From the NCBI GenBank assembly GCA_902800345.1, contig CADCDO010000011.1, forward strand, positions 6,084 through 70,083: DNA of 64,000 nt, read 5' to 3'. The position numbers and the translations under genes were made by a program. The notes beneath the pieces are model-generated. The model had not been told where the DNA came from, ran no database searches, and saw only the letters and a list, made by a program, of their open reading frames with translations. Below, in pieces: positions 20,319 through 41,740 of this stretch (within the stretch, counting starts at the first letter, position 1; each line of letters begins with the position of its first letter). Origin of the DNA: Fibrobacter succinogenes. GTDB lineage: Bacteria; Fibrobacterota; Fibrobacteria; Fibrobacterales; Fibrobacteraceae.

Positions 20319-20331
20319 CGGCTTCGCCGCA

Positions 20332-24759: not shown

Positions 24760-24785
24760 AAGTTTCGAAACCGAAAAGCGAGAGC

Positions 24786-25729: not shown

Positions 25730-27559
25730 ATGTGCGGAATAGTTGGATACAATGGTAAGGGAAGTGCACTCCCGATCCTAGTGGAAGGTCTCAAGAAAAT
25801 GGAATACCGCGGCTATGACAGTTCAGGAGTCGCAGTTTTAGACCAAGGGAGTATAAAAGTCGTCCGCGCATCCGGCAAAATCAAGGCTCTCGAGGACAAA
25901 CTAAAAGAAACCCCGATTAAAGGTACCGTAGGCATAGCCCACACCCGCTGGGCCACCCACGGCGCCCCCACCGAAGAAAACGCCCACCCGCACACCAGCT
26001 ACGATGGAAAAATTTCGATTGTCCACAACGGCATCATCGAAAACTACGCAAGCCTCAAGGCAAAACTCATTTCCGAGGGAATCCAGTTCAAGTCCGAAAC
26101 CGACACCGAAGTCGTCGCCCACCTCATCGCACGCTATTACAACGGGGATTTGAAGTCCGCCGTCCTCAAGGCGCTCAAGCAAGTCGAAGGAACATTCGGC
26201 CTCGGCGTCATCTGCAGCGACGAACCGGACGTCTTGATCGGCGCCCGCCGCGGAAGCCCGCTTATCCTCGGCATCGGAAACGACGGGGACTTTTACCTCG
26301 CCAGTGACGTCGCCGCCATCATCAACCACACGCAAAAAGTCGTTTATCTGGACGACAACGACGTTGTACAAATCAAGAACGGCGGCTACTCCATCGTGAA
26401 CATGAGCAGCCACGAAGTGCAGCGCGAAGTCCAGGACGTGGAATTCGACGCCGACGCCGTCGCCAAGGGCGGATTCCCGCACTTCATGCTCAAGGAAATT
26501 TTCGAACAGCCCGACGTGCTCCGCAACACCATGCGCGGCCGCCTGCTCACCGCCGAAGGCAACGCGAAACTCGCCGGCCTCGACACGAACATCAAGGAAC
26601 TCAGGAACATCAACCGAATCATCATCACCGCCTGCGGCACAAGCTACTATGCCGGCATGGTCGGCGAATACATGATCGAAGACCTCGCCGGCGTCCCGGT
26701 CGAAGTCGAATACGCATCCGAATTCCGCTACAGGAACCCGATTATCAAGCCGGGCACGCTTGTACTCGCCATCAGCCAGTCCGGCGAAACGGCCGATACG
26801 CTCGCCGCCCTCAAGGAAGCCCAGCAAAAAGGCGCAACCGCGCTCGCCATCTGTAACGGAGTCGGTTCGACCATCGCGCGCACAAGCGACGGTGGCGTTT
26901 ACTTGCACGCCGGCCCAGAAATCGGTGTGGCTAGCACCAAGGCATTCACAAGCCAGGTGACCGTGCTTGCCATGATTGCACTTTTGCTCGGACGTCAACG
27001 CCGACTCAGCTTCGAGACAGGCGCCGACATCGTCAAGGACCTTACGGAACTTCCGGATCTCGTCACAGAGACCCTCAAGCTCTCCGACAGCATCGCCGAA
27101 ATCGCAAAGACCCTCAGCAAGGCGAACAACTTCTTGTACCTCGGTCGCCACTTCTGCTACCCGGTCGCCATGGAAGGCGCCCTGAAGCTCAAGGAAATCA
27201 GCTACATCCACGCCGAAGGCTACCCCGCCGCCGAAATGAAACACGGCCCGATTGCCCTCATCGACGAGAACATGCCCGTCGTGGTCATCGCCCCGAAAGA
27301 CGCCCTCTTCGACAAGATTATCAGCAACATCCGCGAAATCAAGGCCCGCGGCGGCAAAGTCATCGCCGTCACCACGGAAGACTGCCACCCGCTCGACGAA
27401 ATCGCAGACAACCTCATTATAGTGCCGAAGACCCGCCCGATGCTCATGCCGATTGTCACCTGCATTCCGTTGCAGCTCCTCGCCTACCACATCGCCGTGC
27501 TGCGCGGAAACGACGTGGACCAGCCGAGAAACCTCGCCAAGAGCGTAACGGTAGAATAA
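25730..27559 (+). CDS. glmS: Glutamine--fructose-6-phosphate aminotransferase
   Basis: I trimmed the entry to the ATG at 25730, giving MCGIVGY (N-terminal nucleophile Cys). It has two SIS domains and the canonical C-terminus NLAKSVTVE. Confidence 0.97.
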   Translation: MCGIVGYNGKGSALPILVEGLKKMEYRGYDSSGVAVLDQGSIKVVRASGKIKALEDKLKETPIKGTVGIAHTRWATHGAPTEENAHPHTSYDGKISIVHNGIIENYASLKAKLISEGIQFKSETDTEVVAHLIARYYNGDLKSAVLKALKQVEGTFGLGVICSDEPDVLIGARRGSPLILGIGNDGDFYLASDVAAIINHTQKVVYLDDNDVVQIKNGGYSIVNMSSHEVQREVQDVEFDADAVAKGGFPHFMLKEIFEQPDVLRNTMRGRLLTAEGNAKLAGLDTNIKELRNINRIIITACGTSYYAGMVGEYMIEDLAGVPVEVEYASEFRYRNPIIKPGTLVLAISQSGETADTLAALKEAQQKGATALAICNGVGSTIARTSDGGVYLHAGPEIGVASTKAFTSQVTVLAMIALLLGRQRRLSFETGADIVKDLTELPDLVTETLKLSDSIAEIAKTLSKANNFLYLGRHFCYPVAMEGALKLKEISYIHAEGYPAAEMKHGPIALIDENMPVVVIAPKDALFDKIISNIREIKARGGKVIAVTTEDCHPLDEIADNLIIVPKTRPMLMPIVTCIPLQLLAYHIAVLRGNDVDQPRNLAKSVTVE

Positions 27560-27618
27560 TAGGTCTTAGGGTTTTTCCACAGTTGGCGGAACTTAGAACT
27601 TAGAGCTTAGAAAGCAAG

Positions 27619-27642
27619 CCCCTCCCGACGGGAGGGGTTTTT
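27619..27642 (+). terminator. Intrinsic terminator after glmS
   Basis: The 7-bp GC stem CCCCTCC / GGAGGGG has loop CGACG and is followed by TTTTT. It sits 60 nt after the glmS stop. Confidence 0.7.
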
Positions 27643-27644
27643 AG

Positions 27645-27854
27645 CTATTTCATCATTTGATAGATGTAGAGCCAACTTTCGTGCCAAAGTTTAGAAGATT
27701 CCCTGCTGAGAATTTTGCAGACTGGGGAATTGTAGTATTTCAACAGGGCATCTTGAAGAGACAGATGCTCAGTGCGGTTCAGTTCACCACAAATCTTTGC
27801 AATCTTCCCAGGAATGAACAAATGAACATTCTCTTGTGTTACCTGCCGATTCAT
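27645..27854 (-). CDS. Small helical protein, DUF3791-like (third gene of the DUF3990 module)
   Basis: 69 aa. Its start codon overlaps the stop of the DUF3990 gene (TGATG). The family call is tentative, based on size, position and a helical LxxxL/W-rich pattern. Confidence 0.4.
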   Translation of the reverse strand: MNRQVTQENVHLFIPGKIAKICGELNRTEHLSLQDALLKYYNSPVCKILSRESSKLWHESWLYIYQMMK

Positions 27855-28342
27855 CAGCGAACCTCCTCGCTTTTTACAAAATTGAGAAACGCAAGGGAAC
27901 GTTCCGTATGAAAACAGAACTGGTTTACAAACTTCCAGGCTCTTAGTTCTTCAAGCAACTGAGGCCTTGAAAGAAAGCCCTGCTCGTAAAGATTAATACT
28001 GGCATAGACACTATCGTTTGCAACAGCTCCCTTTACAATGTCGTATTCGTACTTGAAATTCGCGTCTTGGCGATTAGCAATGACAAAGTCAAGCCATTCG
28101 TCATCGGCTCTTTCGAACACCTTGCTGTTGAGCGAAGAACTGGACAAATCCTGTTCATCAAATTCAAATTCCGAGACTACAGCCATTTCATACCCAAAAC
28201 GATCTTTTTTGATTAGCGACCAATCCTTAGCTTGTTTAAAACTAGATGTCGCATAGAATCCTTGGCCAAAGTCCATCGCTCGCGTAGGTTTCAAAATTTT
28301 CGGTTCGGAAACAGTTGTGAAGCCGCCATGATAGAGAATCAT
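27854..28342 (-). CDS. DUF3990-domain protein
   Basis: 162 aa. MILYHGG...DFGQGFYATS...DEWLDFVIANR...YDIVKGAVANDSV...NLY..G.....L..L......NQFCFHTE matches my memory of the DUF3990 consensus. It has TGATG overlaps with both flanking small genes. Confidence 0.7.
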   Translation of the reverse strand: MILYHGGFTTVSEPKILKPTRAMDFGQGFYATSSFKQAKDWSLIKKDRFGYEMAVVSEFEFDEQDLSSSSLNSKVFERADDEWLDFVIANRQDANFKYEYDIVKGAVANDSVYASINLYEQGFLSRPQLLEELRAWKFVNQFCFHTERSLAFLNFVKSEEVR

Positions 28343-28551
28343 CAGTCCCCCTTTTTCATCAAATCGTCAAGCGTCCCGAGGATGTAGTCTTTCCCCTGCG
28401 TGTGCAGAACTTCGTAATGCTTTTCCAAAAAAGAGATAATCCCCTTTTGAGCAAAGGAGTTCGCTATAGTCGTAGGATCCATCCGATAAAAAGCGGAATA
28501 TTCCTCGATACACCAGGATGCGAATGCAGCTATTTTTTCGAACTCAGACAT
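28342..28551 (-). CDS. DUF3791-domain protein
   Basis: 69 aa. FASWCIEEYSAFYRMDP....F...G...FL.KHYEVLHTQG matches the DUF3791 pattern usually paired with DUF3990. Confidence 0.6.
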   Translation of the reverse strand: MSEFEKIAAFASWCIEEYSAFYRMDPTTIANSFAQKGIISFLEKHYEVLHTQGKDYILGTLDDLMKKGD

Positions 28552-28610
28552 ATGGAATCAATAAACCTTTTCCTTAATATACATTTTTCGAACAGGTCTT
28601 CAAAATCACA

Positions 28611-28735
28611 TAAATTCCCCAAAGTGATGTTTTTTCGCGATTTGGGAAAATATACGCATAAAACTACGGATAATCTCCCAAATCTCTGAATTTTGACAAG
28701 ATTTGAGAGATTATACAACTTTTAGAGAATTGTAG
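28611..28735. repeat. Iteron-rich intergenic module, copy A (upstream of the DUF3791/DUF3990 operon)
   Basis: My hand alignment to 41741..41868 gives roughly three-quarters identity over about 125 bp. It starts TAA(A)TTCCCC(A)AAAGTGAT(G/A)TTTTTT. It contains 4 copies, in both orientations, of a motif of about 16 bp, GATTT(G/T)(G/A)G(G/A)(A/G)A(A/T)(A/T)TAT. Confidence 0.75.
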
Positions 28736-28750
28736 TGAGGTTTTTAGCAC

Positions 28751-28795
28751 ATTTAGAGAGTTATACCGCAAAAAAGTGCTTATAACTCTCTAAAT
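28751..28795. repeat. Perfect 15-bp inverted repeat of the iteron motif
   Basis: ATTTAGAGAGTTATA (28751-28765) and TATAACTCTCTAAAT (28781-28795) are separated by 15 nt. A further direct copy, ATTTTGAGAATTATA, lies at 28813-28827. Confidence 0.85.
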
Positions 28796-28973
28796 CTCAT
28801 ATTTTTTAGCACATTTTGAGAATTATAGAGAGGTTTTTGTCGAATAGCGTTTTTTTTCGAGGGAAACCCGGTAGTGTAAAGGAAACCGTTTTAATCGATT
28901 CTAGAAGGATACCCTATACAACCTTCGGCTTATAGCTTACGGGGGTATGATTCCTAATACGAAAGAAACTTTT

Positions 28974-31900
28974 TTACATCTTTTCAAATTCAACGCCAAG
29001 CAATGGAACCCAGATAGCCTGACCAAATTCATCTTCCCATTTACAAACTTGGATTAATTTAGCTGTTTTCGGCTTATAGAAATTTTTCTGGAGATTCCTG
29101 AGATAATCTTTTTCAAATTTATTAGAAAATTTGGTAACGTACCGCCCATTAAAGTACGTGTTGTAGCATTGAAATTCTTGATTAAATTTAATCTCAATTA
29201 CAGTTCCCAATGGAATGGATGCAAATTTCTCTTGTAAATATCGTGTCCGACTTTTATTCTTTTCATTTACAAGCATATATTTGAAGACCAAATCATCTAA
29301 GCCGGTTTCAACGTGTACTATCTTAGGTACACTATATTCTTTAAGTCTGCCCATATTTTTAAAATTCTTAATCCAAGAACTCGGAAGATTCGCCTCAGTT
29401 CCTAATACTGTAAGGGTTTTCTTGGCACGCGTTGCAGCAACATAGAGTAATCTGAATTGTTCCTGAGTTTCAGGAATCCATTCACCAAGATTTAATATAA
29501 CGTGATCCCATTCAAGTCCTTTTGAACTATGCATTGTACCAACATTAACCTGCAAATTTCCTTTTTTATTTAGGTCAGCATAAGAGACTTCGTTTAGGTA
29601 TTGTTCAAAATCACTTAAAACAACTTCGTCTTCACCATCTATAAAGTCGTTGATTACAGCATCTAACAATTCAAAGGAACTTTCGCCTTCATAGTCTTTC
29701 TTATACTTTTCTGCAATTTGTTTGAACAGCTCTATAGTCCAAGATCTCTTTGCAATATCTTTATCCGCTTCTACAATTGTTTTGAAACCAACAATTTCAC
29801 GAACTGATTCCACAGGACATTTTTCTAGATCCTGGCTTTTTATGACACGACAATCTACTCCTAATTCTTCTAATTTTGCTGCCGCCAAAAACACTTCTGA
29901 ATTTTCTGGACTTAGAATGCAAGCGGAACCATTATCTAATTTACATTTCTCAACCAAAATTTCAGCAGCGGCAAACGCACCTCGCGTTCTATCGTATTCT
30001 TCAAAGAATTCAAGTTTTCCAAGTTCAGGATTAACAGCAACTTGTTTCTTGCCATCTTTAACTCGATAATTTAGACAGCTCAATATTTCTTCATTTGCTC
30101 GAACAAGATTTACCGCAGAACGATAATTATTCGTTAAATAGAATTCTTTCGTATTGGAAAATTCCGATGAAAATTTTCTAAAAAATTCAGAGGAACTTCC
30201 TCGAAATTCAAAAATACTTTGGTCATCATCCCCAACAACTATCAATCTCGGAGGTTTATCTCCATACCTATAGAGGGCTTTTAACATTTTGTATTCCGAA
30301 CTAGAAAGGTCTTGAAATTCATCAACAAGAATAACGCCTAGTGAACCAATTCCAACATCTTCGCCAGATTCAACGACCTCTGCGGCTTTATTAATAATTT
30401 CTTCGCCTTTTTGCGCATTGCCCGTCTTCTTAAAATCCTTCTTAGAGCCCTGAATTCCTAGAATTGAAAAAGCCAAGGCATGGAAAGTTGTGATAGTAAC
30501 ACCATGGGCCAACCCCTTTGCCAAATCATTTAATCGCTTGCGAAGTTCTCGACAAGCTGAACGTGTAAAAGTCAATATCAACAAAGAATTGGGTTGAATT
30601 TCTTCCAACCACAACAAAGACGCGGCCTTATGTACAAGCATGTGTGTTTTGCCAGACCCTGGTCCAGCGCCAACTAAAATATGTCTCGCATTACTTTTGA
30701 TAATTGCTTTCTGTTCTTTATTAACCGCGTTTATACGTTCACGCAAATTTATGGAAACGGCACCCTTTTCATCGGGAGACATCATGTATTTTTGACGGAA
30801 TTGATTAATATTCAACGTAAAATAGTCATTCAGCAATTCTTGTGCGGCTTCTTTATTGTTAAGCATCATTTGGGCATACCTGCCGACAATATGAATCGCT
30901 TCAGCCTTGTTTTCATAAAAGTCGTGGAGTTTCTGAAAATCTTGTTCACTAAATGGTTTTGTCCTATTTTCAGGACTTATATCCAAAACAAGCCCAGTAT
31001 AGAATACCATCAATCCATTTTCTAGACTAATGGCTCCAATCAAATGCAAGAAGAGTAAAGCAAATTCAAATTGCGCTTGCCTTGCAAGGTCTTCAATGTC
31101 GTCTTCCCCATAGATTCTCAAGATGAGATTGTCTATAGAGAACCAAACAGTATCATTAAGAGTATCATCTTTCTTTTTTCCCTGCTCTTTTTGTATAACA
31201 AGCAGAGTATCGATAATCCGTTCAAAACATTCCCAGTTATCAACAAGATTCTTACGGACAATATCAAGTTCTTTTAGAAATTCAATTTGATATCGCTGAT
31301 GACCTGCCTCTATTAAATGAATTTCTGCAATACTTTCATGAGCCCAATAACGAAGAATACCTCGCAAAATTTGCAGACATTTTCTTGTTTCAGTTCCAGA
31401 TTCAGATTCACCTCGAGCAGCATTGACTTTCGTCAAATTCAGCAAAAACGGCTCATTGATACAATGACCCTCACAACTTTTTAACAGAATTTCTTGTAAA
31501 CCCTTCGCCCGTTCCAGCATTCGTTTGCAATTAAAGGTCCCCAAGCGTTGAATCTTTGCACTCCAATCATTTCGTTGGTCTAAAAGACGTTTGCTACGAA
31601 GCAGCCGTAAAGCCTCATTTGCATCTTTTCGTTCAATGCCCAAATTGACTGTAATATCATCAAGAGCACATTCAGGATTCTTTGTCCATCTTTTAGTGAT
31701 AATATGTCGCATGATTCTAAATGCGATGTTTTCAATCGTATTTGTCTTATCAATGTTTGGACTATCTAAAATGTACCGAATCTGTGAAACAGTTTCTATG
31801 GCAATTGAGGAACCAAATACTTGTGTTTGATTCCGTTTTCTTTTCAAAAAGCCTTGATCTTCCAAAAGCATAATGGCGTGCTTAACTTTTGTTTCTAGCG

Positions 31901-33908
31901 CTCCTATATTTTCGTTTTGCTCAGTCCAACCGCATTTATCTGCAATTTCCAAAGCAGACATCACAAGCCGTTCACGTTTCTCGCTTTGCTTCATTAATAC
32001 ACGCCAAATGTCACCAATTTCTTTTTCAGATAATTTTGATTGCTGCAAAAGTTGAAAATTGGTATCCAAATCTTTTGAATTGTACAGGGCAACACAAAAA
32101 GCCTGCATATCCGGGTTTCTACCCGCACGACCAGCCTCTTGCACATAGTTTTCTAATGTACTTGAAATTTCGTAATGAGCGACTAATTTGACATTGTTTT
32201 TGTCAACCCCCATTCCAAATGCTGTGGTAGCGACAATCGTATCAATGTTTCCATCAGTTTTTTGAAATTCTTCCTGAACATCTATTTTAATATCAGCATC
32301 CATTTGACCATTATAACAACCGCTTTTGAAACCATACTCTTTTAAACTCTCTGCTAATTTTTCGGTTGTTTTAACTGTAGTTGCATAAACTATTTTAGGT
32401 CCATCATACAACTTCAATAAATTAACAAGTTCTTTTCCACGTTCATGTTTATCTCTAGATGCAGGTATAACAGAATATTCCAAATTTTTTCTTGTTGCAG
32501 AGCTAACAATCTTTACCAAATCGAGATTCATTCTTTTCTTAAAATATCCACAAATATCATCAACGACATCCTGTTTTGCTGTTGCCGTAAAACAACTGAT
32601 TGGAATAGATGATTCCAAACGCTTTTCTTTTTCGAGATCCTTGATAAAATCGGCAAGATAAAGATAATCAACTCGGAAATCTTGTCCCCAAGCACTAAAA
32701 CAATGCGCTTCGTCTATAACAAATCGTTCTATACGGCGTTGTTTTAGCAACTTAAATATCGTATTGGAACGAAGAGCCTCGGGCGAAATATAAAGAATGT
32801 CTTTTTCATTATCAAGAATTGCCCTAATTGTATTTTTTCGCTCTAATGGAGAAATTTGTGAGTATATACACGCGGCACGATCTATTCCAAAACGCTTTGT
32901 CAACACATCCACTTGGTCTTTCATCAAAGCCACAATCGGCGAAATCACAACCGTCAGTGCACCAATTTGGCTACCAGCAATCAAAGCTGGCAATTGAAAA
33001 GTCATTGACTTTCCACCGCCAGTCGGGAAAACCGCTAAAAGAGAATCTCCTCGCATTGCTGTTTCAACAACGCGCTGTTGTAAGGGAATTATTTCATCTT
33101 TCTCAAAAGAACGGAAAGCATCAAATCTAAACCATTTCTTTAATTGCTTTGTTGAACTTAGCTGTTCTGAGCAATATAGACATTGAAAATTGCCGCAAGG
33201 AACAAGACGACGATGATGCAAAATACTTTCAAGATGTGGGTACTGGTAGCGAACCCAATGGGGAACAAAATCACTAATTCCATCCTCATAGAATAGCGTT
33301 AAGAGGAAACTCCATTCTATAGGAGACTCCTTTATCTCATCACGACAATTTGTCAAACATAGTTTCGACTTATAATTCTCATAAAGCCAAACAAACACTT
33401 CCTTACGTTTTTCTTTAACCTCAGGCTGAGCAAAATCGCCAACTATTTCAAAGAATGGAGCAAAACCCGGTTTATCGTACAACAAACAATACAACAGTAA
33501 TCGCAATTGCCATGGAAAGGTTTTCCATTTTTCAACACAGGCTTCCAACAAGTCCTTGCATAGATCCGCATCTTTGAGAGAGTTTGAAGGATCATTTTCA
33601 TCACGCAGATATTCCTTGCGTAACTTATGATAGGGTTCACGAGGAAATATAAGTGGTGATAATCTTAATGTATCTAGAACCTTGATGCTTGGGAAATCGA
33701 TTGAAAAGTATTGTTTGATGATTGGAACATCATGTTGTAAAGCGTTGTGCCCCACAATAAATTTCGCTTTTGATGCAGCATCTTCTAATTTTGCGGGATT
33801 TTTCTCACGAGCACGATCCTCACCTAGAATATAGCCGTATTCCCGAACAATTTCCGTTCCAGGATTATACTCCAAATCAAAAAATAAAAAATCGTGCAAA
33901 TTATCCAT
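28974..33908 (-). CDS. 1644-aa triple fusion: DEDD (DnaQ-like) 3'-5' exonuclease + RecQ-type SF2 helicase + UvrD/Rep-type SF1 helicase
   Basis: - Exonuclease region (about aa 8-130): FFDLEYNP and IVGHNALQHDVPII.
- RecQ core (about aa 270-620): FPTGGGKSMTFQLPAL (Walker A at nt 33002-33032), ISPIVALMKDQ, VIDEAHCFSAWGQDFRVDY and QEAGRAGRN.
- UvrD core (about aa 1060-1580): LVGAGPGSGKTH (nt 30661-30683), ILTFTRSA, ILVDEFQDLS, VVGDDDQSIFEFRGS, TNNYRS, GTMHSSKGLEWDHVIL and LLYVAATRAKKTL. Confidence 0.85.
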   Translation of the reverse strand: MDNLHDFLFFDLEYNPGTEIVREYGYILGEDRAREKNPAKLEDAASKAKFIVGHNALQHDVPIIKQYFSIDFPSIKVLDTLRLSPLIFPREPYHKLRKEYLRDENDPSNSLKDADLCKDLLEACVEKWKTFPWQLRLLLYCLLYDKPGFAPFFEIVGDFAQPEVKEKRKEVFVWLYENYKSKLCLTNCRDEIKESPIEWSFLLTLFYEDGISDFVPHWVRYQYPHLESILHHRRLVPCGNFQCLYCSEQLSSTKQLKKWFRFDAFRSFEKDEIIPLQQRVVETAMRGDSLLAVFPTGGGKSMTFQLPALIAGSQIGALTVVISPIVALMKDQVDVLTKRFGIDRAACIYSQISPLERKNTIRAILDNEKDILYISPEALRSNTIFKLLKQRRIERFVIDEAHCFSAWGQDFRVDYLYLADFIKDLEKEKRLESSIPISCFTATAKQDVVDDICGYFKKRMNLDLVKIVSSATRKNLEYSVIPASRDKHERGKELVNLLKLYDGPKIVYATTVKTTEKLAESLKEYGFKSGCYNGQMDADIKIDVQEEFQKTDGNIDTIVATTAFGMGVDKNNVKLVAHYEISSTLENYVQEAGRAGRNPDMQAFCVALYNSKDLDTNFQLLQQSKLSEKEIGDIWRVLMKQSEKRERLVMSALEIADKCGWTEQNENIGALETKVKHAIMLLEDQGFLKRKRNQTQVFGSSIAIETVSQIRYILDSPNIDKTNTIENIAFRIMRHIITKRWTKNPECALDDITVNLGIERKDANEALRLLRSKRLLDQRNDWSAKIQRLGTFNCKRMLERAKGLQEILLKSCEGHCINEPFLLNLTKVNAARGESESGTETRKCLQILRGILRYWAHESIAEIHLIEAGHQRYQIEFLKELDIVRKNLVDNWECFERIIDTLLVIQKEQGKKKDDTLNDTVWFSIDNLILRIYGEDDIEDLARQAQFEFALLFLHLIGAISLENGLMVFYTGLVLDISPENRTKPFSEQDFQKLHDFYENKAEAIHIVGRYAQMMLNNKEAAQELLNDYFTLNINQFRQKYMMSPDEKGAVSINLRERINAVNKEQKAIIKSNARHILVGAGPGSGKTHMLVHKAASLLWLEEIQPNSLLILTFTRSACRELRKRLNDLAKGLAHGVTITTFHALAFSILGIQGSKKDFKKTGNAQKGEEIINKAAEVVESGEDVGIGSLGVILVDEFQDLSSSEYKMLKALYRYGDKPPRLIVVGDDDQSIFEFRGSSSEFFRKFSSEFSNTKEFYLTNNYRSAVNLVRANEEILSCLNYRVKDGKKQVAVNPELGKLEFFEEYDRTRGAFAAAEILVEKCKLDNGSACILSPENSEVFLAAAKLEELGVDCRVIKSQDLEKCPVESVREIVGFKTIVEADKDIAKRSWTIELFKQIAEKYKKDYEGESSFELLDAVINDFIDGEDEVVLSDFEQYLNEVSYADLNKKGNLQVNVGTMHSSKGLEWDHVILNLGEWIPETQEQFRLLYVAATRAKKTLTVLGTEANLPSSWIKNFKNMGRLKEYSVPKIVHVETGLDDLVFKYMLVNEKNKSRTRYLQEKFASIPLGTVIEIKFNQEFQCYNTYFNGRYVTKFSNKFEKDYLRNLQKNFYKPKTAKLIQVCKWEDEFGQAIWVPLLGVEFEKM

Positions 33909-33972
33909 ACTTTACAAATATATAAGAAAAAATTTCAAAACAAACCTCGCACGAAAAAACAATCCACTTCAA

Positions 33973-36900
33973 TCAGTTGCTAAACTCATTCCAAATGAAC
34001 TTTTCCTTATATTCGCAAGCAGGATAATTAGAACATCCCACAAAATAATGGCCATTATAGCCTTTTCGTTTTATAAGGAACCCTCCACAATTAGGACATA
34101 TTTTAGGACTTGACAAAATAGTCACGTCTCTTTGCGCATACCGACACCGCGGAAAATTAGAACACCCCACAAAAGATTTACCATCATGTTCAACTTTCAG
34201 CAAGTCTCCCGTTTTACAAAGAGGACATTTCGTCTGTTTTCCACTTGTTCTTCTCCTCGTTGATTTGAAGAATACAGATGTAGATTCTGAAAATTCCTTG
34301 AAAAATGGCGATGGATTCTTGTTGTCCACAAGGACATATGTTCTATTTTTTGTTCGGGTAATAGCAACATAAAATAAACGACGTTCTTCCGCAAATCTGT
34401 AGTCTTCTGCATTTGTAAGAACAAAATTCAAAACAGGATCATCAATTATCTGATTCGGGAAACCAAGTTTGTCATTTCTAAAATTCAGAAGAATAACATT
34501 ATCTGCTTCCAATCCTTTTGATTTGTGAACGGAAAGGAATTGTATTGGCAACATCGGATTTTGAATGTACTCTAGTGCTTCAGTACCATTCTTCCGAATT
34601 TCTCGGAATAAGCCGGTATCTTTTGCAATTTCTATATCGTAATTTGTTCTCCCTAAAAGTAAAATGGACGAATTCGTTCCATAATCCAAAGCGATTTTAT
34701 TGATTATCGCTTGCAAAGCGTTTCTCGGATTGTCATCGAAGCCCCAAAAAACAAGAGGATAATCTAGCTTTTTATCGGAGCGTAAACATTTCTTGAGCTG
34801 AAGTGGATTTTGCAAAACAAAACGCGAAGCTTCATCGATTAACTTTTGCGAATTACGATAAGTTTTCTCAATTTTCAATATTTTCGTTTTTCCAAAATAC
34901 TTTGCAATATCAGTAAATAACGAAATATCGCTACCAGCAAACCTATATATGGATTGCCAGTCATCCCCTACACAGAATAACTTCGCTTTTGTTTTATCGA
35001 CAATAGCCTTTAACAGATTAAATCTAGCCTTCGAGATATCCTGGTATTCATCAACAATCACATATTTATACACAGGAATCTCGCAACCAGCATTAACCTT
35101 CTCTGTTGCATTGTTTATCATATCCGAAAAGTCTATTGAATTATTAGCTATTAAGTGTTTTTGATATTCTTCCAATATCACTCTTATTATATTCAAAAAA
35201 GTGTTGTTTCTTCTTTGCAAGAAACTGTTATTTTCTAACGAAAGCCAATCTTTCCAATTATCAATCGTTCCTATTGTATAATTATTAGACTTAAAAAGCA
35301 CAATAAAAGTTCCGCACAATTTTACAAATTCAGAGAAATACTTATTCGTCTTGGTTGCGTAAACAGTATTGAAAATATCCATGAAATTTCTTGATTTCAG
35401 AACAACCCCATTTTGTTTTAGAAGTTCTTCAAGTTTTTGCAGGAGAACACCTTCTGAATTGTAGTATGAATAAGTTTCAATCAACTTAGTTTTATTCTGC
35501 TTATGAAAATCTCTTTTCCATTCAATTCCTTCTAAATATTTTTGAGCTTCAACAAGAGAAAGCCACGGAACCGTATAATCTCTTGTTATTCCAAAATGTT
35601 CTAAATAAATATCATAATCTTTCAAATAAAAATCCGGCCTATATGCTTTTCGCAAGGGATCCTGACTTTCGAAAGGATAGATTTTTTCATATTCGTAATT
35701 TACGCCATTTAAAAAAAGAAAATTTGCAATCTGAACTTCTTGAAGACTTTTTACTTTTTCATTTTTAAGCGTTGTATGATCCTGCGCTTTCTTTATTTTT
35801 TCTTCATGTATATATTTTTCTTGATCATATTTTGATTTAAGAGTTTCTAAATCTACGCTTTTTTCAGCCTCATACATTTCACCCAACGAAGAACATTCTT
35901 CCATATTTTGCGGGATATCGATATAATACGCAAAGTATTCAATTATATTTTTCACTAAATCAGGATAATTTACAAGTTCCTTTTCAAAAAAAACATGTAT
36001 AAATTTATTAAAGAGAGATTCATCAAGAACCTCAGGCCTTTTCCCATCAGCACTTTTGATTATATCAAGACCTAACTTGTGAAAAGTAGTCGAGTTAACA
36101 GGAATTCCCAACTTTCCCTGAATTCTATCGGTCATTTCTTGAGCAGATTTTTTCGTAAACGAAATAAGAAGTATTTCCTCTGGATTTATATTCTTGACAT
36201 CGCAAAGATACTTAACCTTGCCTGCAATCGTTAGTGTTTTTCCGCTACCCGCTCCGGCAAGAACAAGGATTCTATCTTCATCGGTTATGACAGCTTCTCT
36301 TTGTTGCAGATCCAAAGACTTACCATCTATATCAGAAAACAAAGAATCATATTTTTGTGATTCTTGTGCAATAAATAATTTATTCGCATTTTCCAAATAA
36401 TTGGAAAATTTCTTATAAGTCGTTTCAAAAAGATTTATTTTTCTATATTCATCATCATTCGTTTTTAAATTACAAGTTGCAACATCTTGAGACAATTTTT
36501 TCCATTTCAGATGAAATATTTCACCATCAGCATCCGTAACATAATAACTCGTCAGCACACGTAGTTCTTCAAAAAAAATGTTCACAAATTGCAAAAGCAG
36601 CTTGAGTTGTTCCTTACGCCTAATCTCTGCATTTGATTCTAAAACAAGCCTTGGGAAATCTTCGTATTTTCTTCTAAATTCTTCTAATATTACAAAAGTT
36701 TTTACTTTTGAAGAAATACGACTGTACTTTAGCAATTCAAAATACAAAGCCTGATATTTTAGAATGAACGTATCTCTTTCGGTATCTTGGATATAGTGTT
36801 TAAACAATCCGTCAAATTCAATTAAAAATGATTCTACTTCGATTAAGAGCTCTTTGCATTTGATTTCCACATTTGATTCTATAACGAGCCTCGGAAAATC

Positions 36901-37188
36901 TTTGTACTTCTTCTTAAAATCTTCTAACTTTACAAAATCATCAACTTTTGATGGAATACCACTATACCTTTGCAACTCATAATACAACACTTTATACTTA
37001 AAAACAAAGGCGTCCCTTTCTGCATCCTGAATATAGTGATTAAAGATACCGTCAAAGTCAACGAAAAAACAATCACATATTTCTATGAAGTTTTCTACTT
37101 TTTGTTCAAATTCTTTAGCAAGTTGTCTCCGATGTGCCACGTAACATAGAGCAACTGAAGTGAATAATACAATTATTAGCACAAACAT
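33973..37188 (-). CDS. Membrane-anchored UvrD/helicase-IV-like SF1 helicase with a PD-(D/E)xK-like insert and two C-terminal topoisomerase-type C4 zinc ribbons
   Basis: The ORF track starts at a TTG (37197); I prefer the ATG at 37186-37188 (MFVLIIVLFTSVALCYVA, a TM helix).
- Helicase motifs: VLAGAGSGKTLT (nt 36241-36264), ISFTKKSA, VIVDEYQDIS, CVGDDWQSIYRFAGS, TYRNS, SVHKSKGLEADNVILL and RRLFYVAITRTKNR.
- Insert: YRPDFYLKDYDIYLEHFG (nt 35591-35640).
- C-terminus: CPLCKTGDL..GCSNFPRCRY and CPNCGGFL..GCSNYPACEY. Confidence 0.8.
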   Translation of the reverse strand: MFVLIIVLFTSVALCYVAHRRQLAKEFEQKVENFIEICDCFFVDFDGIFNHYIQDAERDAFVFKYKVLYYELQRYSGIPSKVDDFVKLEDFKKKYKDFPRLVIESNVEIKCKELLIEVESFLIEFDGLFKHYIQDTERDTFILKYQALYFELLKYSRISSKVKTFVILEEFRRKYEDFPRLVLESNAEIRRKEQLKLLLQFVNIFFEELRVLTSYYVTDADGEIFHLKWKKLSQDVATCNLKTNDDEYRKINLFETTYKKFSNYLENANKLFIAQESQKYDSLFSDIDGKSLDLQQREAVITDEDRILVLAGAGSGKTLTIAGKVKYLCDVKNINPEEILLISFTKKSAQEMTDRIQGKLGIPVNSTTFHKLGLDIIKSADGKRPEVLDESLFNKFIHVFFEKELVNYPDLVKNIIEYFAYYIDIPQNMEECSSLGEMYEAEKSVDLETLKSKYDQEKYIHEEKIKKAQDHTTLKNEKVKSLQEVQIANFLFLNGVNYEYEKIYPFESQDPLRKAYRPDFYLKDYDIYLEHFGITRDYTVPWLSLVEAQKYLEGIEWKRDFHKQNKTKLIETYSYYNSEGVLLQKLEELLKQNGVVLKSRNFMDIFNTVYATKTNKYFSEFVKLCGTFIVLFKSNNYTIGTIDNWKDWLSLENNSFLQRRNNTFLNIIRVILEEYQKHLIANNSIDFSDMINNATEKVNAGCEIPVYKYVIVDEYQDISKARFNLLKAIVDKTKAKLFCVGDDWQSIYRFAGSDISLFTDIAKYFGKTKILKIEKTYRNSQKLIDEASRFVLQNPLQLKKCLRSDKKLDYPLVFWGFDDNPRNALQAIINKIALDYGTNSSILLLGRTNYDIEIAKDTGLFREIRKNGTEALEYIQNPMLPIQFLSVHKSKGLEADNVILLNFRNDKLGFPNQIIDDPVLNFVLTNAEDYRFAEERRLFYVAITRTKNRTYVLVDNKNPSPFFKEFSESTSVFFKSTRRRTSGKQTKCPLCKTGDLLKVEHDGKSFVGCSNFPRCRYAQRDVTILSSPKICPNCGGFLIKRKGYNGHYFVGCSNYPACEYKEKFIWNEFSN
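36493..37095 (-). repeat. Intragenic tandem duplication (2.4 copies of a 240-bp/80-aa unit) in the N-terminus of the UvrD-like helicase
   Basis: In ORF-track numbering, aa 44-123 (FFVDFDGIFNHYIQDAERDAFVFKYKVLYYELQRYSGIPSKV..KKKYKDFPRLVIESNVEIKCKE) align to aa 124-203 (FLIEFDGLFKHYIQDTERDTFILKYQALYFELLKYSRISSKV..RRKYEDFPRLVLESNAEIRRKE). A degenerate third partial copy follows. Confidence 0.85.
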
Positions 37189-37202
37189 GTTTAGCAAACG
37201 CC

Positions 37203-38384
37203 TTACCCCTTAAAATTCCAAATTTCGTACCCTTGCCGTCTTGCAGAATCATATACGGGTTGCATGTTCTTTTTCAGAATATTGATAAATTGTTCTTCAC
37301 TATTTCCCGCTCGAAAAAGTTCCGTTTCAGCCCATATCGAATGAATGTTGTCGCGGTAACATTTCTCAAAGCGGTTGCGAACGAATTCGTCATTCCACAT
37401 CAAACGATACATTGCATATTGGTTGTCAGCAAATTGCTTGAAAAAAGTCCAATGTGGCAGGCGATTATTCTTGGAAGAGTTTAACGAAGAATCCATCGGA
37501 ATCAGATTCCACAATTCATCGTTCATCACGAACGACCATGGAATAAAATGGTCAATATCGTAATCATTTTCAATAGGCTTGTTTGTATAGATGTCAAGAA
37601 TCGTTTCTCGTTGCAGGATTATTTCCCATAGTTTGCGGACTTGTTCAAGTTTTCGAGTACTTGCATCCAAAGGAGAAAGTTTATACACAATACCCGGAAC
37701 TTCGGGATTGTTGACTTGCAACCATTTTGATTTTTCATGCTGAATCCATCCAAGAATCGCAACCGAATTGTCTTGAATATATTGTTTCCATATCGGATTA
37801 AAAACAACTTTACGATTTAGCTGCGGATTTTCGTCAAAGGTGTACGGCAGCAAAATACGGCGATTCACTGCTTGCGTATATCCAATGATTGCCGAGGTAC
37901 TATTCCAATTGACTTTTTCCCCACGTCCCTGTTCGTAACGATTATAAAATCCTGCCAACGCTCGATAAGGAACATATTTTGTCAATGCGATTTTATACTT
38001 CTTAATATCTCTGTTAAATTCCTTGATTGCATTCTTGATTTCTATCTTGGATGCATTGGATTGCAAGTCACTCTTTTCGGCTAAATCAGTAACGGCCAAT
38101 TCTAACGCATCGCGAAATTCGCCTTTCAGCATACCGCTCAAGTGAATGTGATATTCGCGGACAGTGAACCATGCATTCGCAATCATTTCGTCAATAATCG
38201 CATCAAAACTTGCAACGCTCACATTTTCATCAATCAATTTGACAATCGCTTCAAGCCAATAGAACTTGTAACAATATGTTGGATCTTTCATCATGAGCGA
38301 AAAACACTCGACATCGAGTTGATTGCAATAGGGCGAATTAACATCCAAAGCTAAGCTTTGCGGGAAAGGATTATATTCATCCAT
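37203..38384 (-). CDS. HNH endonuclease-domain protein (Cas9/HNH_4-type motif) with an uncharacterised N-terminal domain of about 270 aa
   Basis: 393 aa. The motif is YDIDHFIPWSFVMNDELWNLIPMDSSLNSSKNNRLP (nt about 37455-37562). It fits D-x-D-H-x-x-P-x-S...N-L-x-P...N-x-x-K-x-x-x-x-P. The start overlaps the methyltransferase gene by 34 nt. Confidence 0.75.
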   Translation of the reverse strand: MDEYNPFPQSLALDVNSPYCNQLDVECFSLMMKDPTYCYKFYWLEAIVKLIDENVSVASFDAIIDEMIANAWFTVREYHIHLSGMLKGEFRDALELAVTDLAEKSDLQSNASKIEIKNAIKEFNRDIKKYKIALTKYVPYRALAGFYNRYEQGRGEKVNWNSTSAIIGYTQAVNRRILLPYTFDENPQLNRKVVFNPIWKQYIQDNSVAILGWIQHEKSKWLQVNNPEVPGIVYKLSPLDASTRKLEQVRKLWEIILQRETILDIYTNKPIENDYDIDHFIPWSFVMNDELWNLIPMDSSLNSSKNNRLPHWTFFKQFADNQYAMYRLMWNDEFVRNRFEKCYRDNIHSIWAETELFRAGNSEEQFINILKKNMQPVYDSARRQGYEIWNFKG

Positions 38385-38941
38385 TTTTCTTCGCTCCTAT
38401 TCGGTCTTACATCCATAGATATCCAATATTCATCGCATTTCAATTCAGGAATATTCAAAAGAAATTCAGCAAACGTTTGCTCTGTAAAATCAGAAAAATA
38501 ACGGGCGTTTCTTTCGCCAGAAAAAGTCCCATATTTGAACGATGTATAAATTATTCCAGCAGGCTTAAGGGCCACTGACATTTTTTTCATAACAGGAATA
38601 AGTTCATCGTTTGGCAAATGAAGAATAGAAGCACACGCCCAAATTCCATCGTATTTTGCGACAGCATCTAATTGTTGAAAAAACATTTGCCTAACGGCAA
38701 GGCCCGTGTAGGCACTGGCAATTTTGCACAGTTCTTCTGAACCATCGACAGCGTCCACATCATAACCTTTCATAAGGAACGCTTTCGCATCACGACCAGC
38801 ACCACACCCAAAGTCCAATATTTTCGCATGTAGCGGTAAATAATTGAGGAATCGATCCTGCGTGGCAGAAAAATCTACACCAATAGTACTGCTGGAGTAT
38901 TCCTTCGCATTTTTATTATAATAATCAACGGATGTTGTCAT
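38351..38941 (-). CDS. Class I SAM-dependent methyltransferase (small-molecule/Methyltransf_11-25 type, not an obvious DNA MTase)
   Basis: 196 aa. Motif I is ILDFGCGAGRDA, with an acidic post-I residue (DAVDGS) and motif II YDGIWACASILHL. I saw no (D/N)PP(Y/F) motif and no cytosine-5 PC/ENV motif. Confidence 0.85.
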   Translation of the reverse strand: MTTSVDYYNKNAKEYSSSTIGVDFSATQDRFLNYLPLHAKILDFGCGAGRDAKAFLMKGYDVDAVDGSEELCKIASAYTGLAVRQMFFQQLDAVAKYDGIWACASILHLPNDELIPVMKKMSVALKPAGIIYTSFKYGTFSGERNARYFSDFTEQTFAEFLLNIPELKCDEYWISMDVRPNRSEEKWMNIILSRKA

Positions 38942-39255: not shown

Positions 39256-40245
39256 ATGAACAAAAAGACCGACAATACAGATGTCATCGTACAGAATTCG
39301 CTCATCAATTCGTCCGTCGAAAAGATGATTCAAGTCATCCGAGACAAGCAGGTTCTGCTGGACCGCGACTTGGCGACGCTCTACGGGGTAGAAACGAAAG
39401 CACTAAACCAAGCCGTCAAGCGAAACCAGAAACGTTTTCCTGAAAGGAACTGCTTTATGCTGAATAAAGATGAAATTCCTGAATCTTTAAAGTCACAAGT
39501 TGTGACTTTAAACGAGAGAGGCAACAGACGAGGCTTACATATCAAAAAAATGCCCTACGCTTTTACAGAACAAGGCGTCGCAATGCTTGCATCTGTTTTG
39601 CGCAGCGATACCGCGATTCGTGTATCCCTCCAAATCATGGACGCTTTTGTCGAAATGCGGCACACTCTGATGCAAAACGGAGGTTTGGTCCGCAGACTTT
39701 CCAATCTCGAATCAACTGTTATAGACCAAAGCGCCAAAATCGTCGACCACGACCGTAAACTAGATGAACTCTTCGAGGCAATGGACCGCGGTGAACTCCA
39801 AACGAAAGGATTATATTACAACAATCAGATGTTCGACGCCTATGTATTCGTTTGCGGATTGATCCGACAAGCAAAAAAGCGAATTGTCCTTGTAGATCGC
39901 TACGTGGATGAAAAAGTGCTCGCAATGATGCTCAAGCGCAGCAAAGGCGTGTCGGTGACAATCTATACATACGACAAAAGCAAGGTCTTCGAAGTGGATT
40001 TGGCAACATACAACGCACAGTATGCGGACAGTCCCATTGAAATTTTACCATGTTATGGAATGCACGACCGATTCCTATTCATAGACAATATAGCTTACCA
40101 TTTTGGCGCATCCCTGAAAGACCTGGGAACAAGCACATTTTTCTTCAGCAAAGAAGATTTCACACTAGATGAAGTGCTAAAGAAATCAGAGGAAAAGCGA
40201 CAATTACAAGAGTTCTTAGCAACCGAACCATCAAGGAATACTTGA
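39256..40245 (+). CDS. ORF6N (KilA-N-like) DNA-binding-domain protein with a C-terminal degenerate HKD/PLD-like module
   Basis: 329 aa with a strong SD (AAGGAGA). The ORF6N signature is IRDKQVLLDRDLATLYGVETKALNQAVKRNQKRFPE..CFML. The C-terminal motif is HDRFLFIDNIAYHFGASLK (nt 40063-40119), which fits HxRxxxxD-x6-GAS. Confidence 0.7.
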   Translation: MNKKTDNTDVIVQNSLINSSVEKMIQVIRDKQVLLDRDLATLYGVETKALNQAVKRNQKRFPERNCFMLNKDEIPESLKSQVVTLNERGNRRGLHIKKMPYAFTEQGVAMLASVLRSDTAIRVSLQIMDAFVEMRHTLMQNGGLVRRLSNLESTVIDQSAKIVDHDRKLDELFEAMDRGELQTKGLYYNNQMFDAYVFVCGLIRQAKKRIVLVDRYVDEKVLAMMLKRSKGVSVTIYTYDKSKVFEVDLATYNAQYADSPIEILPCYGMHDRFLFIDNIAYHFGASLKDLGTSTFFFSKEDFTLDEVLKKSEEKRQLQEFLATEPSRNT

Positions 40246-40257: not shown

Positions 40258-41694
40258 TTATATCGTATTCTCCCTGAACAAATCCTCCATCGTGATTTCT
40301 TGTTGTGCAACGCTGCTGTTAGCACCTTCGGCAACACCATAGGTAGTTACCATTGTGGGAACGATGGCGTACTTGGTTTTCGTTTTAGCACGGAATAGTT
40401 CGGCCCTGTTGCGAATGTAATCGGCATATTCCGCCGTCATTTGATACTTGCCTATAGCGAATTTAATTTCGCACAAGTTTATTGTTCTGTCCGCCCTTGA
40501 AATAACCAAGTCAATTTGGGCTCCTTTTTCAGAATCGCTTTTCGGCACATATCTCCACGCAGACACTTCCGTCGCAACGCCAGCAATACCCAGTTTCTGC
40601 TTTATGGCATCGACATGCGTCATGCAGACAAGTTCAAAAGTCTGTCCCTGCCAACTTTCTACGCTACGCGAGTTGAAATGTTTACTCCACCATTGTTCAT
40701 CAAGAGAGTTGTTCGCCTGCACATACTTGAAATAAAAGAGAGTATAGAAATCAGACAACCGATAGATGGCGTCCTTGACCTTGTTACCAAGCTGGCTATA
40801 TCGCAAAACAAAATCGCATCGTTCAAGGTTCTTCAGCACGGCTGTCAGTGTTTTGCCATCAAAATCGACCTTTTTGTCTATTTGGGAACGAGTCAAGCCT
40901 TCCTTATGGTTTGCCAATAGTTGCGCCACCTGTACATAGTAATCCGCATGGGTGAACAAAGCGTTGTACAATTCGTCAAATTCAATTTTCAGTAGAGCAT
41001 TCTTACGGAAGAAAAGACGGTCTATGTTTTGGACAAGGCTCAAGCGGGTATCCAGCAGGCTCCAGTAAAACGGGACTCCGCCCAAAATCATGTACGCCTG
41101 GAGAATCTGGTACCTGTCCCATGCGCATTTCCTAGCACGGAGATATTGTTCCGATTCATAAAGTGTAAAAGGATTCAGGTAGATGCTGTTCGTAATGCGG
41201 CAATGCAACCCACCTTGGTTTTCGACGAGTTTGTCGATCATCCAGCTAGTTGCGCTACCCGTTGCAATAAACAATATATCTTTACGGCGTGCAGCCCAGC
41301 CATTCCAAAAATTCTCAAACTCCTCAACGAAATCCGATTTTGGGGTGTCGATCCAGGGCATTTCATCAAAAAAGATGACTTTTTTATGGTCACTGGATTG
41401 CGACTCGATCCATCCGGTTAACGAATCGAATGCTTCGGACCAATCGGCAAACTCTGGCAATTTTGGCAAACGCGCGTAATGTTTGATAGCTTTTGCGAAA
41501 TTACGCAACTGCTTTTTTACGGGCAGGTTATGGCCACCGACAAAAGAAAATTCGTACTGACGATTGAAAAACTCTTCCACAAGGAAGGTCTTACCTACGC
41601 GACGACGGCCGTAAACGACAACGAACTCCGACTGGTCACTTTTCAGGCACCGGTCGAGTTCCCCTATTTCACGATTTCGTCCAATCAAGTTCAT
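40258..41694 (-). CDS. AAA-type ATPase (archaeal-ATPase/DUF234-like, Orc1/Cdc6-related fold)
   Basis: 478 aa. It has Walker A (VVYGRRRVGKTFLV), Walker B (VIFFDEMPW) and a C-terminal DUF234-like region (QIDLVISRADRTINLCEIKF, nuclease-fold-like). Confidence 0.75.
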   Translation of the reverse strand: MNLIGRNREIGELDRCLKSDQSEFVVVYGRRRVGKTFLVEEFFNRQYEFSFVGGHNLPVKKQLRNFAKAIKHYARLPKLPEFADWSEAFDSLTGWIESQSSDHKKVIFFDEMPWIDTPKSDFVEEFENFWNGWAARRKDILFIATGSATSWMIDKLVENQGGLHCRITNSIYLNPFTLYESEQYLRARKCAWDRYQILQAYMILGGVPFYWSLLDTRLSLVQNIDRLFFRKNALLKIEFDELYNALFTHADYYVQVAQLLANHKEGLTRSQIDKKVDFDGKTLTAVLKNLERCDFVLRYSQLGNKVKDAIYRLSDFYTLFYFKYVQANNSLDEQWWSKHFNSRSVESWQGQTFELVCMTHVDAIKQKLGIAGVATEVSAWRYVPKSDSEKGAQIDLVISRADRTINLCEIKFAIGKYQMTAEYADYIRNRAELFRAKTKTKYAIVPTMVTTYGVAEGANSSVAQQEITMEDLFRENTI

Positions 41695-41740
41695 CAGAAT
41701 CTCCCATGTTGTTTATCTAAATATATAAAAATCAATCGTA

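Follow-up and report, generated by a model that had tools for sequence, protein, structure and literature searches.

The window, that is, the whole 64,000-nt stretch of Fibrobacter succinogenes DNA analyzed here (contig CADCDO010000011.1), contains four adjoining minus-strand genes encoding a small methyltransferase (MTase), a protein with an HNH nuclease domain (HNH protein), a helicase-IV-like protein and a large fusion of exonuclease, RecQ and UvrD parts (Exo-RecQ-UvrD). Comparison with related loci (retrieved for this purpose and designated by L-numbers) suggests that this block is probably a stack of three separable anti-mobile-element modules, located in a chromosomal island of low GC content that is flanked by glmS and scpA. 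The first module, a translationally coupled MTase-HNH pair, would be the conserved core and an uncharacterized two-component restriction-like nuclease module. The most interesting piece is this widespread two-gene pair with its puzzling MTase rather than the four-gene block. The domain types involved (HNH, class I MTase, superfamily 1 and 2 (SF1/SF2) helicases, DEDD and PD-(D/E)xK) are familiar, and they occur here in conserved combinations that are unreported; naming was checked against PADLOC v2 and the literature, and more recent naming is possible.

The MTase-HNH pair

To date, 485 relatives of the HNH protein could be identified in one-genome-per-species contigs with the HNH-family alignment as query, and neighboring genes were counted in 10-kb flanks of the best 80 of them. 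The MTase adjoined the HNH gene in 61 of these 80 loci, upstream in 60 and downstream in one; a reversed order, with the HNH gene followed by the MTase, was seen in L080. The upstream MTase mostly overlapped the HNH gene by 40, 34, 7 or 4 nt, the overlap in the window being 34 nt. Pairing was retained with HNH homologs of 25–27% identity on a Francisella plasmid, where the order is reversed and the MTase is 34% identical over its full length, and on an Allochromatium plasmid, where an MTase of 40% identity over its full length lies near the HNH homolog, the C-terminal signature of the MTase being included in both cases. In addition, a natural 578-amino acid (aa) fusion (P0456) combines HNH_4 and Methyltransf_25 domains as recognized by Pfam, and its MTase part shares 40% identity with that of the window (E=2e-50). 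The overlap and the fusion form suggest that the MTase acts close to the HNH protein. The loci bearing the pair were mostly from Lachnospiraceae and other Clostridia, with a few from Treponema, Bacteroidales and Fibrobacter. The pair had no model in PADLOC v2, and no description of it was found in a full-text literature search.

The only Pfam match of the 393-aa HNH protein was PF13395 (HNH_4, residues 265–311), which agrees with an earlier sequence-only reading of the window that had regarded a Cas9-type HNH motif as its sole recognizable part. The segment aligns with the Cas9 HNH catalytic D-x-D-H...N motif, and D278, H279, N293 and N302 were invariant in the HNH-family alignment A1. The N-terminal 255 aa had no Pfam match, and a profile searched against PDB sequences matched Cas9 HNH only. 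When the AlphaFold model of the whole protein was compared with PDB by Foldseek, nothing significant was found apart from weak MarR/winged helix-turn-helix (wHTH)-like hints; with a moderate model (predicted local distance difference test (pLDDT) 72 overall, 70–95 in the N-terminal part), remote kinship is possible. In the predicted layout of the protein, a helical N-terminal module (∼220–250 aa) precedes a Cas9-type HNH nuclease at the C-terminus. In P0401, the same N-terminal module (216 aa) is present and a PDDEXK_7/DUF2357 nuclease replaces the HNH domain, which suggests that the N-terminal part is a recognition module and the C-terminal part an exchangeable effector. The family is large: 3254 relatives were found, and an exhaustive profile search gave 1315 clusters (50% identity) with a threshold of E<=1e-10, a number that fell to 389 with E<=1e-30, the hosts of the relatives being gut and rumen Bacillota, Fibrobacterota, Bacteroidota, Spirochaetota and Pseudomonadota. 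In viral collections the family was represented by one unannotated record and by six loci among 2.9 million viral contigs. Given this rarity, a phage-homing or packaging HNH protein was considered unlikely.

The MTase matched Methyltransf_25/11/12 and TehB in Pfam, all of class I, and small-molecule methyltransferase families in NCBIfam; the matches in the two databases (Methyltransf_25, TehB, CpaM and BchM) were all to generic class I or small-molecule families, and no DNA-MTase family (N6_Mtase, DNA_methylase or similar) was among them. Its earlier description as a small class I enzyme lacking a DNA-MTase motif was therefore confirmed. The nearest solved structure is 3E23, that is, RPA2492, an uncharacterized S-adenosylmethionine (SAM) methyltransferase (E=2e-35), and by its sequence the protein is best placed as a class I SAM-dependent methyltransferase of an RPA2492/3E23-like subfamily. 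Across 75 orthologs, the motifs for SAM binding were kept, as was a family signature (SFKYG, GRYF, DVRPxRxxEKWxN). A partial match to the PADLOC mad2 model was also observed (45.6 bits, model positions 283–410 of 492). Kinship to the phosphorothioation-associated methyltransferase TIGR04096 was considered and rejected, as the SAM-binding loop alone could be aligned.

The pair was mostly found in the company of defense genes. In the loci that bear it, its neighbors included GmrSD, AIPR, Mrr/AspBHI, Vsr-Dcm and SNF2/HATPase genes, and there were also Wadjet, PADLOC candidate systems and restriction genes of types IV and I. A PADLOC scan of 123 neighbor proteins from 19 Clostridia loci placed SauUSI-type type IV enzymes (6 proteins) and PDC-S01 (4) on top, and the other frequent matches were to type I restriction-modification (R-M) subunits, WYL, AbiL/AriA-type ATPases and mad3. 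Among the genes that begin 3–80 nt past the HNH stop codon, one codes for a SauUSI-type type IV enzyme that reaches 619 bits with its PADLOC model; others code for DdmD-like and Bunzi BnzB-like proteins and for a DUF2075 (Schlafen-type) helicase that matched Nhi weakly.

Several additional features of the HNH loci were also observed. In those lacking an adjoining MTase, a gene for a small MazG-like nucleoside triphosphate pyrophosphohydrolase was often located upstream (L042, L050, L060, L059, L093 and L008). In L042, L050 and L060 it was a 113-aa open reading frame (ORF) ∼90 nt from the HNH gene, and in the MazG-like loci a SauUSI-type type IV restriction enzyme lay 18 nt downstream of the HNH gene. 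The HNH protein may have the MazG-like protein as its partner instead of the MTase, or the three genes may form a lineage-specific unit. In L008, an extra MTase copy is followed by only the last ∼45 residues of an HNH gene (12366–13148), and L027 contains an isolated C-terminal HNH fragment (15630–15761); both look like decayed extra copies of the pair. HNH homologs at 25–31% identity were found on cyanobacterial plasmids, namely Synechocystis PCC 6803 pSYSM (L095/L101, record 17880–30168) and a Leptolyngbya plasmid (L093). The neighbors of these plasmid homologs were DUF4007, a P-loop gene, a cysteine desulfurase, an AAA+DUF4276 pair and a TIGR04096 (dnd_rel_methyl) methyltransferase, a setting similar to that of an Ssp/Dnd phosphorothioation cluster. 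The idea of a further conserved gene behind HNH was examined and rejected, as the small downstream ORFs were heterogeneous.

Distribution and architecture of the two helicase proteins

In the same 80 loci, the helicase-IV-like gene adjoined HNH in five and the Exo-RecQ-UvrD gene in three, all of the latter from Fibrobacter. Co-occurrence of all four families was observed in Fibrobacter only (the window, L010–L012 and L090), and in most genomes the pair was present without either helicase. The helicases also occurred alone. Exo-RecQ-UvrD was found by itself in a Fibrobacteraceae-like contig without any partner and in Pontibacter (Bacteroidota), where it adjoins McrBC, a type I R-M system and a SIR2 gene (L091 and L092). 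The helicase-IV-like protein was found alone in other phyla (L098 and L099), its neighbors being AIPR, Mrr and VapBC in one locus, and a type I R-M system and a diversity-generating retroelement in Treponema. Within Fibrobacter, the pair stands by itself in L014, is followed by a DdmD-like protein in L013, and is joined by the helicase-IV-like gene and then Wadjet in Fibrobacter sp. UWB2 (L097). At a second chromosomal site, L090 has all four genes with a large protein 59% identical to that of the window, and L001-4 (at the site of L090) have the pair and a 33%-identical Exo-RecQ-UvrD protein, with no helicase-IV-like gene. These combinations have the pattern expected of cassette shuffling in a defense hotspot, not that of an obligate four-part machine. 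It should be noted that the four genes had previously been proposed to form one system; this part of the proposal is not supported, given joint occurrence restricted to Fibrobacter and helicases that stand alone elsewhere.

The helicase-IV-like protein matched UvrD-helicase, AAA_19, UvrD_C and, in two stretches, Zn_ribbon_Top1 in Pfam, and it scored 345.5 bits against the NCBIfam helicase IV model (HelD, NF008276), under the equivalog cutoff of 543. Gene callers and public gene calls place its start at the ATG at 37188. The hydrophobic N-terminus was retained in relatives of at least 58% identity and was absent from the 36%-identical proteins of L019 and L075; judged from its sequence, this helix may be a membrane anchor. 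Most relatives are ∼991 aa long, with a single copy and a gap at the position of the repeat, and the length of 1071 aa in the window is explained by the 80-aa tandem duplication. The insert within the SF1 motor had no Pfam match, and its profile (A4) matched T7 endonuclease I (3cae, E=0.003; 2pfj; 1m0d), with the PD...E residues aligned. Thus, of the membrane-anchored SF1 helicase described previously, the UvrD core, the PD-(D/E)xK-like fold and the two zinc ribbons were all recovered, the anchor is putative and the nuclease active site is atypical. No PADLOC v2 model and no description in the literature were found for this protein.

The Exo-RecQ-UvrD family (∼1600–1700 aa) is common in Bacteroidota. 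The RecQ core of the window protein scored 262.2 bits against TIGR00614 (recQ_fam), over the cutoff of 219.8, and 290 bits against the equivalog TIGR01389, for which the cutoff of 640 was not reached. It is therefore a RecQ-family member and not the housekeeping RecQ. The N-terminal 262 aa had no match in Pfam and none in a single-sequence phmmer search against PDB, and Pfam searches of six segments without an assigned domain across the proteins of the block also gave nothing. An AlphaFold2 (AF2) model of these 262 aa (pLDDT 87) has a DnaQ-like fold, whose best Foldseek match was Staphylococcus aureus DinG (9ii8, E=6e-4), followed by the TREX1 homolog Plex9.1, NrnC, RNase T and Cap18; the N-terminal profile also matched the DEDD exonuclease 9l8b (E=4.6e-4). 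Four acidic residues of the Exo motifs (D11, E13, D60 and D113) were invariant. As modeled, the domain has the fold and the four acids of a DEDD (DnaQ-like) 3'-5' exonuclease, and its activity is putative. The fusion of DEDD exonuclease, RecQ and UvrD parts recognized before was reproduced by Pfam, NCBIfam, the AF2 model and Foldseek. The three putative nuclease modules that had been assigned to the block all have the corresponding folds, and two of them may be inactive, with the catalytic Lys of the insert and the ExoIII His replaced. Exo-RecQ-UvrD had no PADLOC v2 model, and the literature search found no defense protein of this kind.

Interpretation and relationship to known systems

In the explanation that we consider probable, the N-terminal module of the HNH protein would bind DNA and the HNH domain would cut it, so that this protein would be the effector. 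The MTase would prevent self-damage, either through unconventional methylation that marks self or through direct modification or control of the nuclease. It could methylate nucleic acid at an unconventional position, a nucleotide or the nuclease protein, and the MazG-like neighbors and phosphorothioation-type contexts are leads toward non-canonical nucleic-acid chemistry. The second module would be the helicase-IV-like SF1 motor with its possible membrane anchor, T7-endonuclease-I-like fold and two zinc ribbons, and the third the giant composed of DnaQ-type exonuclease, RecQ and UvrD. Both would be autonomous helicase-nuclease effectors elsewhere, and in Fibrobacter would have been joined behind the pair, with which they would travel as a cassette. 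If the modules cooperate there, the helicase giants could plausibly unwind and degrade DNA nicked or cut by the HNH protein. The analysis shows the anatomy of the block, the modular distribution of its genes, the coupling of MTase and HNH and the defense-island context, and from the last of these we infer an anti-phage function. A more specific proposal is tentative and perhaps doubtful: the pair might be a widespread unnamed two-component immune module with a novel ∼220-aa recognition domain, a swappable nuclease and an unconventional methylation that gives self-protection or control, to which Fibrobacter would have recruited helicase giants as processive degraders. The methylated site might then be a non-canonical one in the bases or backbone of DNA, or else lie in a nucleotide or in the nuclease.

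Several observations weigh against a stack of separable defense modules of this kind. The HNH gene had no adjoining MTase in 19 of the 80 loci, which implies that protection by the MTase is not universally required or is supplied in trans. The signatures of the MTase are those of small-molecule, protein or RNA-type class I enzymes and a target-recognition domain is absent; with no DNA-MTase signature either, classical self-marking of DNA is not supported. An invariant Phe occupies the position of the catalytic Lys in the T7-endonuclease-I-like insert, which may, lacking the canonical Lys, be inactive. Similarly, the ExoIII His of the large protein is replaced and the fifth residue (His/Tyr) of DEDD exonucleases is not conserved, so that the exonuclease domain may be inactive as well. 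Helicase-type genes begin 3–18 nt past the HNH stop in several unrelated combinations, and such tight placement could reflect genuine functional coupling rather than mere stacking. Finally, the neighborhood is the sole evidence for a defense role.

The four proteins might instead constitute one obligate immunity system, in which three nucleases (HNH, the exonuclease and the PD-(D/E)xK fold) and three motors act together and the MTase marks self. We regard this as very unlikely. The order and tight spacing of the four genes are kept at two Fibrobacter chromosomal sites, even where the identity of the large protein falls to 59%, a second, 33%-identical Exo-RecQ-UvrD also lies directly behind the pair, and long helicase genes of five families were found within 3–80 nt of the HNH stop in ∼15 loci. 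However, 75 of the 80 HNH loci have no helicase-IV-like gene and 77 have no Exo-RecQ-UvrD gene, the four families meet only in Fibrobacter, each helicase stands alone elsewhere and every partial combination is found in Fibrobacter. Several of the downstream helicases are, moreover, known to work as systems of their own, one example being the type IV restriction enzyme of the SauUSI type (619 bits).

Another explanation, which we consider unlikely, is that the pair is a selfish addiction module without real anti-phage benefit, comparable to an R-M or toxin-antitoxin pair and maintained because cells that lose it are killed, and that the helicases are accessory repair or recombination enzymes of the same island. 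Gene overlap, a nuclease-plus-protector logic and patchy horizontal spread over five phyla fit addiction, and so do the degenerate remnants of the pair in L008 and L027. Repair helicases are the closest matches of the RecQ, UvrD and helicase IV cores, and Exo-RecQ-UvrD is found in many species of the same Bacteroidota genera, for example Pontibacter. On the other hand, defense genes and not repair genes dominate the neighborhoods, the helicase scores are far under the RecQ, UvrD and HelD equivalog cutoffs, and in Fibrobacter the helicases are located at three different loci in low-GC DNA; addiction and defense are also compatible with each other. It might also be considered, although this appears quite unlikely, that the HNH protein belongs to the modification-dependent, type IV-like nucleases and recognizes a non-canonical mark on invading DNA. 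Its variable partners (the class I MTase, the MazG-like protein or phosphorothioation genes) would then act on nucleotides or on the mark rather than on sequence sites in host DNA. This explanation would accommodate the frequent MazG-like gene upstream and SauUSI-type enzyme downstream in MTase-less loci, the cyanobacterial-plasmid homologs beside cysteine desulfurase, DUF4007, P-loop and dnd_rel_methyl genes, a type IV architecture of reader module plus swappable nuclease, and the absence of DNA-MTase features from the MTase. However, the N-terminal module has no detectable similarity to SRA, sulfur-binding or EVE domains, known type IV enzymes do not have a methyltransferase fused to them or encoded by an overlapping gene, and the phosphorothioation context is confined to homologs of 25–31% identity.

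PADLOC v2 gave generic domain-level matches only for the four proteins (DpdF, PsyrT, GajB, Cas9-HNH and mad2), so that the previous statement that the genes match no named system holds for the PADLOC v2 models and for the defining features tested. The helicase-IV-like protein shares an SF1 UvrD-type core with Gabija GajB, whose models it matched generically at up to 147 bits, and with Escherichia coli helicase IV (HelD), its best NCBIfam match. In contrast to both, it has a hydrophobic N-terminus, an 80-aa repeat, the T7-endonuclease-I-like insert and two extra zinc ribbons; it is set apart from the HelD equivalog by its score under the cutoff and by the insert and ribbons. No GajA (OLD/TOPRIM) was present among the matches listed (for the helicases, the best 25) or in the four flanking proteins. 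The RecQ core matched the DpdF PADLOC model at 296 bits, only over residues ∼266–650, and the NCBIfam DpdF model matched the large protein at 218 bits, with a cutoff of 550; no DpdA-K genes occur nearby, the neighbors being DUF3990, ORF6N, ATPase_2, glmS and scpA. PsyrTA/RqlHI contains a RecQ-like toxin of ∼700 aa with an adjoining PsyrA antitoxin, and the PsyrT model was matched at 247 bits, only by residues 271–656 of the 1644-aa fusion; no PsyrA match was found in the region. Apart from the partial mad2 match, no mad component of MADS matched the four proteins. DinG, the best structural match of the exonuclease fold, has the same exonuclease-plus-helicase layout, although its motor is of the XPD-type SF2, whereas the large protein has RecQ and UvrD motors in a 1644-aa chain and a replaced ExoIII His.

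For the pair, a close parallel in organization is type II R-M with an HNH endonuclease, likewise a mobile two-gene unit of nuclease and SAM-methyltransferase with overlapping genes and with fusions known as type IIG/IIC. Unlike classical R-M systems (types I–III), the 196-aa MTase belongs to no DNA-MTase family and has no target-recognition domain. The HNH protein shares only ∼55 residues, the catalytic HNH core, with Cas9 and differs in having no RuvC domain, REC lobe or CRISPR array. ScoMcrA and SprMcrA combine a wHTH sulfur-binding domain, SRA and HNH, and TagI combines SRA and HNH (PMC10853773). The HNH protein resembles these enzymes in having an N-terminal recognition region and a C-terminal HNH domain in one chain and in its location in defense islands, and its distant homologs occur in phosphorothioation-type gene clusters. 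In contrast, it has no detectable SRA or sulfur-binding domain and its N-terminal module has no PDB or Pfam match. No type IV reader (SRA/SAD, sulfur-binding wHTH or EVE) could be recognized in this module in Pfam, PDB-profile and Foldseek searches, the last with a model of pLDDT 72. Unlike type IV enzymes, it is also coupled, and sometimes fused, to a class I methyltransferase.

If the pair is a working defense module, a common system would be added to the catalog, and the question would arise of what substrate is modified by a 196-aa class I MTase that has no DNA-recognition domain and partners a nuclease. The two giants would then join Nhi, Hna and SauUSI as helicase-nuclease effectors encoded by a single gene. 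It should also be noted that tight spacing on the same strand in a defense island is insufficient to define a system.

The low-GC island and its surroundings

The coordinates of the four genes and of other features are shown in Table 1. Tight packing of four co-directional genes, as reported in the sequence-only reading, was reproduced with exact coordinates, and the intergenic spacings, in the order MTase, HNH, helicase-IV-like and Exo-RecQ-UvrD, were −34, +5 (TTG) or +14 (ATG) and +64 nt. The GC content was 0.33–0.37 over 28–38 kb compared with about 0.50–0.55 in the flanks, which is the minimum of the window and bears out the description of the block as its most AT-rich part. In L010, a metagenome-assembled genome of F. 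succinogenes, the four proteins are 90–94% identical to those of the window, in identical order and also at the glmS-scpA site. A weak NMB0315-like Pfam match had pointed to Neisseria as the host, an idea that was rejected: a search for the Neisseria uptake sequence gave 0 hits, and the close relatives are from Fibrobacter. The flanking genes, which had been taken as typical defense-island neighbors, indeed belong to PADLOC candidates and represent separate modules.

Table 1 Features of the four-gene block and its island (window coordinates)
Feature	Position	Strand	Details
MTase gene	38351..38941	-	196 aa; ORF list
HNH gene	37203..38384	-	393 aa; ORF list
HNH catalytic core	37452..37592	-	residues 265-311; YDIDHFIPWSF...N...N
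Helicase-IV-like gene	33973..37197	-	1074 aa from TTG; 1071 aa from ATG at 37188
N-terminal hydrophobic helix of helicase-IV-like protein (putative membrane anchor)	37135..37188	-	FVLIIVLFTSVALCYVA then HRRQ
Tandem 240-nt (80-aa) duplication D1, N-terminal region of helicase-IV-like protein	36623..37068	-	copies 74% identical
PD-(D/E)xK-fold insert in SF1 motor of helicase-IV-like protein	35389..35871	-	profile A4 match
Two topoisomerase-I-type C4 zinc ribbons, C-terminus of helicase-IV-like protein	34000..34233	-	PF01396, 73 bits, two stretches
Exo-RecQ-UvrD gene	28974..33908	-	1644 aa; ORF list
DnaQ-like exonuclease fold and helical Cys-containing subdomain	33123..33908	-	residues 1-262; AF2 and Foldseek
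RecQ-family SF2 core	32019..33113	-	residues 266-630; DEAD, Helicase_C
UvrD/PcrA-type SF1 core	29388..30740	-	residues 1057-1507; UvrD-helicase, AAA_19, UvrD_C
glmS	25646-27559		one border of the island holding the block
DUF3791+DUF3990 pair	27854..28551	-	Pfam; PADLOC candidate PDC-M13; separate module
ORF6N-domain protein	39256..40245	+	Pfam; PADLOC candidate PDC-S05, 346 bits; separate module
ATPase_2-type P-loop protein	40258..41694	-	Pfam; PADLOC candidate PDC-S27, 647 bits; separate module
scpA	41928-43940		other border of the island holding the block

The segment 27643–28746, which contains the DUF3791+DUF3990 module, has no counterpart in L010, the closest relative and otherwise collinear. 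The site downstream of glmS therefore appears to gain and lose cassettes between strains. No integrase, conjugation or replication genes were seen in the island of the window, so that the four genes show no sign of being part of a conjugative or replicative element, a possibility raised in the sequence-only reading; a megablast search of the 10-kb block against plasmids also gave no match. A 2402-aa ORF lies upstream of the four-gene region at 10140–17348 (minus strand).

Palindromic repeats of ∼46 nt (ATAATTTCCCCAAA...TTTTAGGAAATTAT), ∼60 nt apart, bracket the low-GC island at 28610–28827 (also 28741–28765) and 41740–41847. One cluster immediately precedes the DUF3791/DUF3990 pair and the other the ATPase_2 gene, both of which are on the minus strand. 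Homology to L010 picks up again within the left cluster, and in Fibrobacter sp. UWB2 a 109-nt match to 28746–28854 was found at the island edge (L097:17733–17841). These palindromes may serve as operators or as sites at which cassettes are exchanged by recombination, or they may be REP-like elements. Finally, a PDDEXK_2 gene (Rpn/YhgA-like recombination-promoting nuclease or transposase) adjoins the cassettes in L001–L004, L090, L091 and L097. Such genes occur at differing chromosomal sites in the Fibrobacter-type loci, none of them flanking the block of the window, and may mobilize the pair and helicase cassettes.

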